Assembly: GCF_041248615.1 (NCBI RefSeq)
Contig: NZ_CP158425.1
From: Escherichia coli
GTDB taxonomy: Bacteria > Pseudomonadota > Gammaproteobacteria > Enterobacterales > Enterobacteriaceae
Reading direction: 5' to 3' (one strand)
Length of the DNA: 64,000 nt
Shown here: positions 42,001 through 45,000 of the stretch, one piece after another
Layout: each line of letters begins with the position of its first letter
Position numbering within the stretch: the first letter of the stretch is position 1
Position numbers: made by a program

Positions 42001-45000
42001 GTAACCTCGGGCCGGTTGCTAAGAGTGATGTCACGGATGTCTGAATTGAAGCGGTGCTCGTTCTCATCGCAATACCAGTTCGCCCGGTAAGTACGGCTGG
42101 AATAAGTATTCCATTCGCTCGTGAAAAGACATTTACCACCGATGGCATCAAATCCGCTTCGCAGTCCACCTATCCCTGCAAACAGATCGATAAAGCTAAA
42201 GTGCCTGTCCTCATAATCAGCAGGTCGTGAAGGTATTAAAGTCTGTAGATAGCGTCCATCTGCGATACTCAGCTCACAATGCTCAGGTATGCATGTAACC
42301 TGACGTTTAAGGGATGCACGGGACCAATTACTGCCATTTTCATCATTTAATACCTGAGCCAGATATTTCAGGTCATAAATGGTCGAAGCTGTTAACAAAG
42401 TTTTGTGGATCAGAGATGGTGTTTTATCCACATCATTCAGGTCTGTCTCAAGATCATGAGTGTAACGTTTCATCCAAACTCTCTCAGGAATAATATCTTT
42501 GAGATAGATTAACACGCTTAATTTGGATTATTTTTTGGTTCAGGTTCTAAATTTATTGTGATTATTCTGCCTTTAAGTTGCAAAAAGATTGGTTTTAAGC
42601 CCGCCCATGAAATAATGACTTGTTAAAATACTGCCTGTAAATAGGCTTGTGGATACATGTCTGTACTCAACAAATCAAGGTGAAATGATGTTTTTTTTAA
42701 CAAAGTTACTTTTGCCCATCATGATTGTTGTATTCCCAGTGGCGTCCTGGGGGAACTCAACAACTTTTGAGGCAAAGGTGGTTAAGATTGTTGACGGTGA
42801 CACCATAACTGCGTTGGATGCTCAAAACACAACCATCAAAATACGGATGTATGGTATAGACGCTCCTGAATCTAAACAGGCTTTTGGCCAAAAAGCAAAA
42901 CAGGCCTTAACCACAGCTATAGCAACTAAAATCGTTACCGTGATAGACCATGGTACGGATATCTATGGCCGTATGTTAGGTACCATCTGGTTAGATGGAT
43001 ATGATATCAATGCCTCTATGGTGGACAGTGGATATGCGTGGGTTTATCGGTTCGAAGATAACGCCATTGTCCCTGGCTATATCAAATATGAATCCGCAGC
43101 ACAAAAGGAGGCAAAAGGGTTATGGGCAGACACCAACCCTGTCCCACCATGGCAGTGGAGACAGGCAAACGAAAAGCCCAGAAAGGTGAAAGAGAAGAAA
43201 TAACCATGATGAAAGAGCCTCATCCGTTACTTCAGTTGGTACTAAACGATTCCGGTCGTCTAACCATGCCTGTTTATTATAGAGATCAACAGTATTGCCC
43301 GACTTGCCTTACAAAGGTGTTGAAGAGTGAGGATGGAAGTTTGGCGCACCTCGGGGAAATAAATCAAAATACATGTAGACCTTCTATTTCAGTAGTTGTG
43401 ACAAAAGCAATTATTGAAATGTTATGTGACGGGGAAAAAATATATGTAAATCCAATACGACACCGAGGCCGGGTGCTGGCACCCTCAGTAATTTTTTCTC
43501 CCGACACTCACACTTTCAAACCGTTTATAAATACAGACTATCAGCCTGTGGGAGCAAACTGGAAAAGTGAAAAGGGATATAAACTCGGTCTGTTTTATCT
43601 CAAAGATCGAGCCAACTCTATCAATAAAGAGGAATTTGATTTCATTGCCGTTATAGACCCTGAGGCAATGCAGAAAGAATTTATTTCGGCCTGGTCTGAG
43701 GTTGATGAAAAAAATCCATTGGAAACGCTGAAGCAGATCTTACGATCTAAAAACAACTCTTCTTTATGGGTAAAATGGCCTGGCAAAATTGAGCATGCGC
43801 AAAAAGGAAATTACAACGAAAATTACTGGTTCGATTATCAATCTGATAATCAGGAAGTGAACTGTACGGTCTCTGTTGTAGGTATCGAAGGTAACAGTTC
43901 CGGTGAGACAATTTATAGATTGCAAACTTTGCTAAAGCGTAAGCTCAATGAATATCAACTGGTTCGGTCTTTAGGGACTATTATGCTTCTTGATAATACC
44001 GGGAATATGATTCCATCAAACCATCCTTATTTTGAAGTCATCTCAAAAGCATGTATAAATGGAGTGCGTGACTTTGTTCGTCAAAACCCGTGGGTAGTCT
44101 GACGGTCAACTATAAAGCATAATATAATTAGTAATAACAAGGAACAGACATGAATGAAAACTCAGTAATCTTAATAAGTTTATTTTGGTTTTTTTTGGGA
44201 TCGAGTGTTGTAGCTGGTTTTATGGATGCATCATTATATTGCTGGATTTTTGCAGCCATAAGCGCATTGTTTCTTCTTTCGGTGATACAAACACCAAAGG
44301 AGTTAACGGTATCTATTAGTCATATGACAAGCAAAACGCTGATCTCAAAGACAGATGATGGATACACATTTAGCATTTCACCTTACGGAGACGGGTACCG
44401 CTTATCAGTCTCGCCTGAAAATCGTCACAATGGTACCCAAAGCTTTGACGGCTGGTTCCCACGTTTTTTTTCCGAACCACAGTATGCCAAATCATCTTTA
44501 ACTAAATTTCTCGGTGAGTCCTTAGTATGGGAAGAAGATTCAAGTAATGCTCTATGAGATTACTTATTATAAATTTTTCTATTAATCTCCATGGAGTGAT
44601 ATATGAATTTGGCCTATTTTTTATTTTTGTCTATAACTGTTATGCTTACGAGCTTTATTATTAAATCACTTGTCGTATTGGTAAAGTTCAAATTACTTCG
44701 TGATGAACGTCTCGAATATACCAGCAATAAAAATATTGATGAGATGTACGATTTAATGAATGCGAAGGAAGAAATCCTCATAAGGCATCATAAGCAGATG
44801 TTGGCATTGCATCTTTCACTATTAATATTCGTTCTATTTATTGCTTACATTTACTAAAAATAATTTTATTCAACATTTCAACAAAGGGTTTTCAATGGAA
44901 AGCTTCGAAACTGAACAAATGATTCAATATGCTTTCTACATAAATATCGTAATAACGACTGGTTTGGCATGGTTTTGCTTGCGGTCAGGATTGCATTACA

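Follow-up and report, generated by a model that had tools for sequence, protein, structure and literature searches.

A conserved gene pair of IncHI-type plasmids encoding a predicted exported SNase-type nuclease and an orphan partner protein

Why should a gene for a secreted nuclease be followed, after a gap of only two nucleotides, by a gene whose product appears to stay in the cytoplasm? The question is raised by a 64,000-nucleotide stretch of Escherichia coli DNA (contig NZ_CP158425.1), referred to here as the window. It is IncHI2 plasmid DNA with mcr-1, collinear and identical with NZ_LT599829.1 (E. coli plasmid p14408_M1) from position 64001, and p14408_M1 was typed as an mcr-1 IncHI2 plasmid, MOBH/MPF_F. 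An earlier note on this DNA had pointed out a secreted nuclease related to staphylococcal nuclease (SNase) and coupled to a 298-residue protein of cytoplasmic appearance, and had proposed that the two act on incoming DNA as nuclease and partner or inhibitor. We concluded that IncHI-type (MOBH/MPF_F) conjugative plasmids have long carried the pair as a two-gene cassette of their backbone. As to its role, the answer we tentatively prefer, with confidence a little short of even, is that the two genes are co-expressed and that the partner has a cytoplasmic nucleic-acid job of its own.

Conservation and layout of the pair

The 1.55-kb pair was found in 1,137 plasmids of PLSDB, in 1,119 of them with at least 99% identity and in 1,113 with at least 80% coverage. 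A further 283 plasmids, R27 and pHCM1 included, carried the IncHI1 version. The two genes were contiguous in 1,113 IncHI2-type and 279 IncHI1-type plasmids. Complete E. coli genomes contained the pair in 285 of 5,426 cases, nearly always on plasmids. For comparison, the left arm of the surrounding module, from the DUF4942 gene to the Dcm gene, was present in 1,121 plasmids of the IncHI2 lineage, against the 1,113 with the pair at the same minimum coverage.

Homologues of the partner were traced to their contigs (labelled L with a number), and those given here each lay directly downstream of an SNase gene. Compared with the window, the partner was 81% identical in L021, 73% in L022, 52% in the IncHI1 contigs L003, L012 and L002, 45% in L006, 44% in L008 and 37% in L005. 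In L030 the partner was 22% and the SNase 46% identical to the window, and the genes were still adjacent, separated by 17 nt with a GGGGAG Shine-Dalgarno sequence. Adjacency of nuclease and partner was thus also found in L003, L005, L006, L008, L012, L021, L022 and L030, with a junction between -8 and +5 nt in seven lineages and of +17 nt in L030. Since adjacency with tight junctions is kept down to 22% identity, the pair is an old two-gene unit and not a chance arrangement. The earlier note had made its proposal depend on the downstream reading frame being conserved with the nuclease; that frame stays with the nuclease in IncHI2, in IncHI1 and in seven further lineages.

The nuclease gene ends with TAA at 43201-43203, followed by CC and by the ATG of the partner gene at 43206, which leaves a gap of 2 nt; the partner gene ends at 44102. 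The positions, the gap and the length of 298 residues given in the earlier note were exact. For the nuclease, the start at 42688 (171 residues) was favoured over an in-frame ATG 3 nt upstream (172 residues) because of the spacing to an AAGGTGA Shine-Dalgarno sequence, and the RefSeq start is also 42688. Some gene callers pushed the partner start upstream, giving 317-326 residues and an overlap with the nuclease gene; the start at 43206 is supported by the family alignment. As read from the sequence, this layout implies that the two genes would be translationally coupled, and a terminator scan detected no terminator-like site within or after the pair.

Upstream of the nuclease gene lies the intergenic region that separates it from the divergent dcm gene. 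This region is poorly conserved across lineages, and scans for promoters, terminators and repeats gave chance-level matches only. In pRWS292.s2 (L020, 441-1573) an IS3-family element sits inside it with both open reading frames undamaged, so that this insertion is tolerated. In L008 (5213-5356) the same region contains a degenerate duplicate of the nuclease 5' end, a 47-codon open reading frame covering the signal peptide and the first strand.

One IncHI2 plasmid has lost the pair as such. In Serratia pQC11_1 (L019, 3581-4153; fusion protein P0034) an in-frame deletion has fused the SNase (residues 1 to about 144) with roughly the final 46 residues of the partner, and a transposase has truncated dcm. 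The fusion and the cut dcm together mean that the whole cassette is dispensable in at least some IncHI2 plasmids.

The nuclease and the partner protein

The nuclease matched the Pfam SNase profile PF00565 over positions 1-107 of 107 (E=3.8e-24; 85.6 bits against a cut-off of 21), and PDB thermonucleases were matched at 1e-10 with the active-site residues conserved. In an alignment with Staphylococcus aureus nuclease A and six plasmid homologues, D38, D58, E61, R53, R95 and Y93 were invariant (S. aureus D21, D40, E43, R35, R87 and Y85), and the motifs DGDT, R53, D58-x-P-E61 and D91-x-Y93-G-R95 were shared with nuclease A. With the catalytic and Ca2+-binding residues intact, the protein is expected to be an active SNase-type enzyme. 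By analogy with its family it would act as a Ca2+-dependent, sequence-non-specific DNase/RNase, and the location and substrate assigned to it below are likewise family-based predictions.

The N-terminus of the nuclease reads MFFLTK, LLLPIMIVVFPVA and S-W-G, that is, an n-region containing lysine, a hydrophobic core (LLLPIMIVVFPVA) and, by inspection, a V-A-S / S-W-G cleavage region. No other part of the protein is nearly as hydrophobic; the maximum here is 2.26 in a 19-residue Kyte-Doolittle window. Neither a lipobox Cys nor a twin-arginine motif was seen on inspection of the leader. All seven aligned homologues had a hydrophobic N-terminus ending in a small-x-small site, which preceded the first conserved strand by 3-6 residues; leaders of homologues at 37-76% identity were different in sequence and equivalent in form, with A-x-A-type sites. 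The nuclease is therefore a case in which export to the periplasm, in Enterobacterales, can be predicted as very probable.

Two closer assignments were rejected. Scores for the NCBIfam equivalogs EcnA (68.3 against a cut-off of 180) and NucI (49 against 250) were too low, and a ParB of the RK2/RP4 parCBA type did not fit the surroundings, where the neighbours are Dcm, DUF1173 and the partner and no resolvase was found within 9 kb.

The partner has a molecular mass of 34 kDa, an isoelectric point of 7.0 and a maximal 19-residue hydropathy of 1.16; no signal peptide or transmembrane segment was found by hydropathy. No family was matched in Pfam, NCBIfam, PADLOC or PHROGs, and a sequence-profile search of the PDB with E up to 10 gave no match. 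RefSeq lists it as WP_000975182.1, 'hypothetical protein', and in all public sources it is named only 'hypothetical', 'uncharacterized' or 'plasmid related'. The earlier note's descriptions of both products, a secreted SNase-like nuclease and a cytoplasmic-looking protein of no known family, have therefore stood up.

Compared with the two closest lineages, the partner had a ratio of non-synonymous to synonymous substitution (dN/dS) of 0.19-0.24. Its open reading frame was undisrupted over homologues from 100% to 22% identity, and K123, D145, E234 and D263 were invariant in the family alignment. From this sequence record we take the partner to be a real, constrained protein. It is at the same time the fastest-evolving gene of the module, with a dN 2-3 times that of the nuclease and the highest dS, values that pointed to a mosaic ancestry.

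The family to which it belongs is very small. It comprised 34-40 clusters at 90% identity among 5.8 billion proteins, and an exhaustive profile search of 1.84 billion gave 27 representatives at E<=1e-3. Among 100,044 species-representative genomes there was one locus, an IncHI1-like contig binned into a metagenome-assembled genome of Bacillota. All members that could be placed were on plasmid-like contigs of Enterobacterales, and the orphan family of the partner is restricted to IncHI-like (MOBH) plasmids. Three sub-types were distinguished. The first is SNase-linked and has about 300-315 residues. The second has 341-344 residues and stands alone, in Klebsiella plasmids, between parAB and genes for immunoglobulin-like (Ig-like; Big_3/DUF4165) proteins. 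Members of the third (about 254-266 residues) match profile positions 57-290 only and so lack the N-terminal region; the one that was placed stands alone near an H-NS gene.

That N-terminal region is where a resemblance to a known domain was detected. Columns C31, C34, H48 and C57 are conserved in the family with the exceptions of P0022 and P0023, and relatives of the partner gave below-threshold Pfam hits to CoiA_N (0.024) and, for P0110, to DUF7828 (1.6e-4) and DUF7830 (0.003). With hhalign, partner residues 12-40 aligned onto CoiA residues 4-42 (E=0.015). With a hidden Markov model (HMM) of the Bacillus CoiA N-domain, 10 of the 27 members reached 5 bits or more, whereas only 0.3% of shuffles matched in composition did so, and these hits fell in SNase-linked and unlinked sub-types alike. 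The N-terminus of the partner is on these comparisons a putative CoiA_N-like zinc ribbon.

The similarity ends there. An HMM of the remainder of CoiA scored at most 0.6 bits in 27 of 27 members (shuffle maximum 7.2), and the partner was rejected as a CoiA homologue, only the ribbon being similar and the CoiA_nuc PD-(D/E)XK and CoiA_C domains being undetected. Three other identities were also discarded. A published listing of 'thermonuclease, phospholipase D' could suggest a phospholipase D (PLD) protein; hhalign against the PLD protein of L010 gave a probability of 0.1%, and in R27 the PLD is a separate gene downstream of the partner gene. Paralogy with DUF1173 received P=0.11 from hhalign over 18 residues, and the Cys spacing differs. 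An 'ETIY…EYQLV' motif reminiscent of GIY-YIG proteins misfits by eye in spacing and residues and was backed by no fold match.

An AlphaFold2 model of the partner had a mean predicted local distance difference test score (pLDDT) of 72.6 and a predicted template modelling score (pTM) of 0.59. In the model, small N-terminal hairpins are followed by a helix packed on a six-stranded sheet and by two helices; the rest consists of a disordered loop (194-216), a four-stranded sheet and a long C-terminal helix. The protein would accordingly be described, at the level of the model, as an N-terminal ribbon with two alpha+beta domains of unrecognised fold. Foldseek found no significant structural match in the PDB (best E 0.22) or in a viral set (best 0.07).

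Role of the pair within its plasmid module

Nuclease and partner are not always found together. An SNase sister clade at 52% identity lacks the partner, its next gene being a PLD or H-NS gene. More than 3,500 other plasmid SNase homologues are below 60% identity, and the two checked directly (IncC and Klebsiella types) have no partner; in all, more than 5,000 PLSDB plasmids carry an exported SNase homologue. Partner paralogues without an adjacent nuclease stand beside parAB and Ig-like genes or near an H-NS gene, and in NZ_CP048109.1 the paralogue is 124 kb away from the SNase. A nuclease inhibitor would be expected to occur always and only with its nuclease, and here each gene is also found apart from the other.

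These distributions bear on the explanation that we ranked second and consider rather unlikely, namely that the partner is a cognate cytoplasmic inhibitor, guard or export chaperone of the nuclease before its export, comparable to NuiA or barstar. Such a role would agree with a cytoplasmic product encoded immediately downstream of a secreted nuclease and tightly coupled to it throughout the nine lineages, even at 22% partner identity, and antagonist and immunity proteins often evolve faster than their targets, as the partner does (2-3 times faster than the nuclease). Besides the SNases that lack the gene and the unlinked paralogues, the protein itself argues against it: at 34 kDa, with a neutral isoelectric point, several domains and a ribbon, it differs from the known nuclease inhibitors, which are small, acidic and single-domain. 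A further objection lies in the properties of the enzyme. SNase requires Ca2+ at about millimolar concentration and has hardly any activity at the Ca2+ levels of the cytoplasm, and its overproduction in the cytoplasm of E. coli is routine. An AlphaFold2 model of a fusion of mature SNase, linker and partner reached a pLDDT of 53.7 and a pTM of 0.35 with 8 paired sequences only, and gave no confident complex; a model of this quality speaks neither for nor against binding. A stoichiometric inhibitor of the nuclease is probably not what the partner is. The joint action with a partner or inhibitor proposed in the earlier note found no support, given the sister clade without the partner, the unlinked paralogues and the different compartments in which the two products would be after export.

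The explanation that we prefer, co-expression with separate tasks, could work as follows. The first gene would supply a Sec-exported, Ca2+-dependent, sequence-non-specific SNase-type nuclease, which would degrade free DNA or RNA on its arrival in the periplasm or elsewhere in the cell envelope. Since the DNA of phages and of conjugation usually passes the envelope within channels made of protein, the substrate would more plausibly be free or transforming DNA. The second gene would be translated by coupling from the nuclease mRNA, and its product would remain in the cytoplasm and most likely bind nucleic acid, as part of a plasmid DNA-handling module with Dcm, DUF1173, DUF4942 and, in R27, a putative nuclease of the PLD type. 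The tight junction would then secure co-expression rather than a physical partnership.

Several observations weigh against this explanation. A gene order kept to 22% identity argues for a tighter link than co-expression alone. The zinc-ribbon similarity lies below Pfam thresholds, and one partner lineage has lost ligands, C31, C34 and H48 being replaced in P0022 and P0023 (C57 is gone in the former and kept in the latter). A SpoVG-like match of the partner was weak and confined to a sub-domain, and the confidence of the partner model is no more than moderate, which may have hidden a known fold. In addition, a literature search by plasmid, family and protein accession returned no publication on either IncHI gene.

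The neighbourhood of the pair is summarised in Table 1. In all IncHI-like lineages the pair faces a divergent Dcm-type methyltransferase, which lies directly beside it in eight lineages and no more than about 2 kb away in L030. The Dcm protein has the Pfam domains DNA_methylase and DNA_meth_N and matched NCBIfam PRK10458 with 845.7 bits (cut-off 710); its best PADLOC model was 'orphan methyltransferase'. The 55-residue protein next to it matched the phage family phrog_25588 at 1.8e-24 and is conserved in IncHI1 and other lineages. It is strongly acidic (13 D/E residues); with such a size and charge it could be a DNA mimic or anti-restriction protein. DUF1173 has been described as a zinc motif with an inactive PD-(D/E)XK-like domain, in which the signature of the active site is missing (PMC3045609). 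Its gene is divergent to the SNase gene also in plasmids without the partner. The DUF4942 and coiled-coil genes are on the opposite strand to Dcm and DUF1173 and overlap each other by 4 nt, and this edge of the module is present in L006, L008, L021 and L022.

A divergent methyltransferase recalls restriction-modification systems, and the SsoII/Ecl18kI-type systems are divergently transcribed. The corresponding explanation, with Dcm marking self DNA at CCWGG and with the partner as a cytoplasmic nuclease or sensor for unmarked DNA, is in our view highly improbable. It takes in the divergence of the partner operon from a Dcm-type enzyme with DNA_meth_N, the conserved proximity of Dcm (eight lineages adjacent, L030 within about 2 kb) and the invariant D, E and K residues of the partner. 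The PDB profile and fold searches, however, detected no restriction endonuclease or other nuclease fold or sequence in the partner, and in L006 dcm is split while the pair is intact, although this is not decisive in a Dcm-positive host. The split extends over three frames (3787-5214; 230, 125 and 76 residues) in a metagenomic contig and could be a real pseudogene or an assembly error.

A bolder version unites all three genes in an unrecognised system against foreign DNA. Dcm would mark self, the exported nuclease would destroy DNA in the envelope, and the partner, representing a new fold family, would sense or process unmarked cytoplasmic DNA or else be the first protein inhibitor of an SNase. 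We regard this as quite improbable.

In R27 (L028, 13581-14360) the gene directly after the partner gene encodes a PLD-family protein, which is cytoplasmic and has one HKD-like motif (Pfam PLDc_2 1.8e-7; weak PADLOC DrmC hits). An orthologue with 58% identity lies directly 3' of the SNase gene in Klebsiella MOBH plasmids lacking both the partner and Dcm (in L010 at 4067-4885), and the PLD gene is absent from the IncHI2 window. As PLD alone, partner with PLD or partner alone may come after the SNase gene, the gene following the nuclease varies among plasmids. Identity to L008 falls along the module from 95% for DUF1173 through 80-83% for Dcm and 66% for the SNase to 44% for the partner, and the dS of the partner is 2-4 times that of its neighbours (window 37176-44102 against L008, L021 and L022). 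This gradient and the high dS indicated a recombination mosaic with the partner at its variable edge.

It is also conceivable, though unlikely in our judgement, that the partner has no DNA role and is an ordinary IncHI backbone gene that shares the nuclease transcript through genome compaction. Compact arrangement is seen elsewhere in the backbone, in the 4-nt overlap of the DUF4942 and coiled-coil genes; the partner has no significant family or fold match, and its zinc ribbon is dispensable in one lineage. Such an origin would hardly lead one to expect an adjacency that outlasts changing flanks and a drop to 22% identity, or a CoiA_N-clan ribbon similarity above that of shuffled controls. The whole neighbourhood speaks against it as well, being DNA-related throughout: Dcm, DUF1173, PLD, HNH, a UvrD-like helicase and H-NS.

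Table 1. Features of the window, with the module around the nuclease gene first
Feature	Position	Strand	Evidence or remark
SNase/thermonuclease-family nuclease, 171 residues, Lys-rich C-terminal tail	42688..43203	+	Pfam SNase; RefSeq WP_001572389.1, 'thermonuclease family protein'
Predicted Sec-type (signal peptidase I) signal peptide, ~20-22 residues	42688..42753	+	sequence reading, Kyte-Doolittle 19-residue window, homologue sites
Junction: purine-rich putative ribosome-binding site in nuclease 3' end, TAA, CC, ATGATG partner start	43185..43211	+	
Partner protein, 298 residues, cytoplasmic-looking, orphan family	43206..44102	+	family alignment, dN/dS
Putative zinc ribbon of partner (C31-P-x-C34 … H48 … C57), CoiA_N-like	43290..43379	+	
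AT-rich divergent intergenic region dcm/nuclease, 214 bp, presumed promoter region	42474..42687	.	
Dcm-type C5 cytosine DNA methyltransferase, 475 residues, divergent from nuclease	41046..42473	-	
55-residue acidic protein between dcm and DUF1173 gene	40818..40985	-	phrog_25588
DUF1173 protein, 439 residues	39476..40795	-	Pfam DUF1173 4.6e-39
DUF4942 protein (272 residues) and overlapping 401-residue coiled-coil protein; left edge of module	37176..39196	+	
Start of window inside mcr-1.1 (colistin resistance), then ISApl1 and PAP2 phosphatase gene	1..3473		
Two tellurite-resistance (ter) clusters, terY/terW/terZABCDE-type	3485..20984		typical IncHI2 backbone
Series of DNA-related and defence-like genes	23871..34139		
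hipB/hipA toxin-antitoxin genes	23871..25494		
HNH_2 endonuclease gene	26286..27101		
UvrD-like helicase	29137..31176	-	GajB model match 1.5e-51
HNH_2 endonuclease gene	32790..33128		
H-NS family gene	33735..34139	-	
attI site (Rfam AAC_AAD_leader / attI)	56069..56144	+	61.8 bits

Elsewhere in the window, no GajA was found beside the UvrD-like helicase, and the gene for 283 residues upstream of the helicase matched nothing. From about 48 kb onward the GC content is abruptly higher, at 64-67%, and the attI site marks a class 1 integron in the downstream accessory region.

Two further observations were made on related contigs. Partner-family genes repeatedly adjoin large Ig-like (DUF4165/Big_3) genes (L014-L018; L008 6976-9408): the 341-residue paralogues are convergent to three Ig-like genes, and in L008 the Ig-like gene follows the partner on the same strand. 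Large Ig-like genes of this class have been reported as needed for IncHI conjugation (PMC6764697). In L024 (NZ_CP048109.1, Klebsiella michiganensis, 76590-81906) a divergent DUF1173/SNase pair has an H-NS gene beside it and psiA (plasmid SOS inhibition) at a distance of about 2 kb, which hints that this SNase belongs to an early-entry or leading-type region.

Comparison with known systems

IncHI1 and IncHI2 plasmids matter for multidrug resistance in typhoid and for the spread of mcr-1, and virtually all sequenced members, about 1,400 plasmids, carry the cassette, as do 5% of complete E. coli genomes. What the present analysis contributes is to delimit clearly a conserved two-gene unit and a very small orphan family, for which a zinc ribbon is probable. 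The pair is a real, cleanly delimited, ordinary and already annotated backbone feature, and it reveals no new mechanism. If the exported nuclease limits DNA uptake, biofilm extracellular DNA or competitors, this would be a backbone function worth targeting, and the same would be true if the partner is a new DNA-binding or nuclease-control protein.

The partner can be compared with two proteins that carry an N-terminal zinc motif. CoiA (CoiA_N, PD-(D/E)XK and CoiA_C) is a competence protein and a DNA-structure-specific PD-(D/E)XK endonuclease of Bacillota (PMC1189080). It resembles the partner in a C-P-x-C … H … C pattern at residues of about 30-57, the putative ribbon of the partner, and in length; unlike the partner it has detectable nuclease and C-terminal domains, and it is restricted to Bacillota. 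DUF1173, which is encoded in the same module and on the same plasmids, likewise has an N-terminal zinc motif followed by an alpha/beta domain without a recognisable active site, but there is no significant profile similarity between the two and their Cys spacing is different.

As a gene pair, the cassette resembles NucA-NuiA of Anabaena and barnase-barstar, in which the gene for a secreted nuclease also lies beside that for a cytoplasmic protein. Those nucleases are of other families, and their inhibitors are small single-domain proteins that always accompany the nuclease, whereas the IncHI partner is a multidomain protein of 34 kDa that is missing beside most related nucleases and also occurs alone.

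The nuclease has the domain (PF00565) and the Ca2+-binding and catalytic residues of staphylococcal nuclease (Nuc), which is also secreted via an N-terminal signal peptide. It differs in being only about 30% identical, in having a PPW(Q/E)WR motif followed by the Lys-rich tail, and in being plasmid-borne in Gram-negative bacteria, where it would be expected to stop in the periplasm. Plasmid-encoded SNase homologues have long been known, among them ParB of the RK2/RP4 parCBA operon and Nuc of the IncW plasmid pSa. The 'thermonuclease family proteins' of IncC, IncX, IncN and Acinetobacter plasmids are, like the IncHI enzyme, small exported SNase-type nucleases on conjugative plasmids, and we know of no settled biological role for any exported SNase homologue on such plasmids. 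The IncHI gene is set apart from these by the partner that follows it, by its divergence from Dcm and DUF1173 and by its position outside a resolvase/par operon. The IncHI nuclease is thus a further case of the known exported plasmid SNases, and what is specific to it is the orphan partner together with the Dcm/DUF1173 setting.

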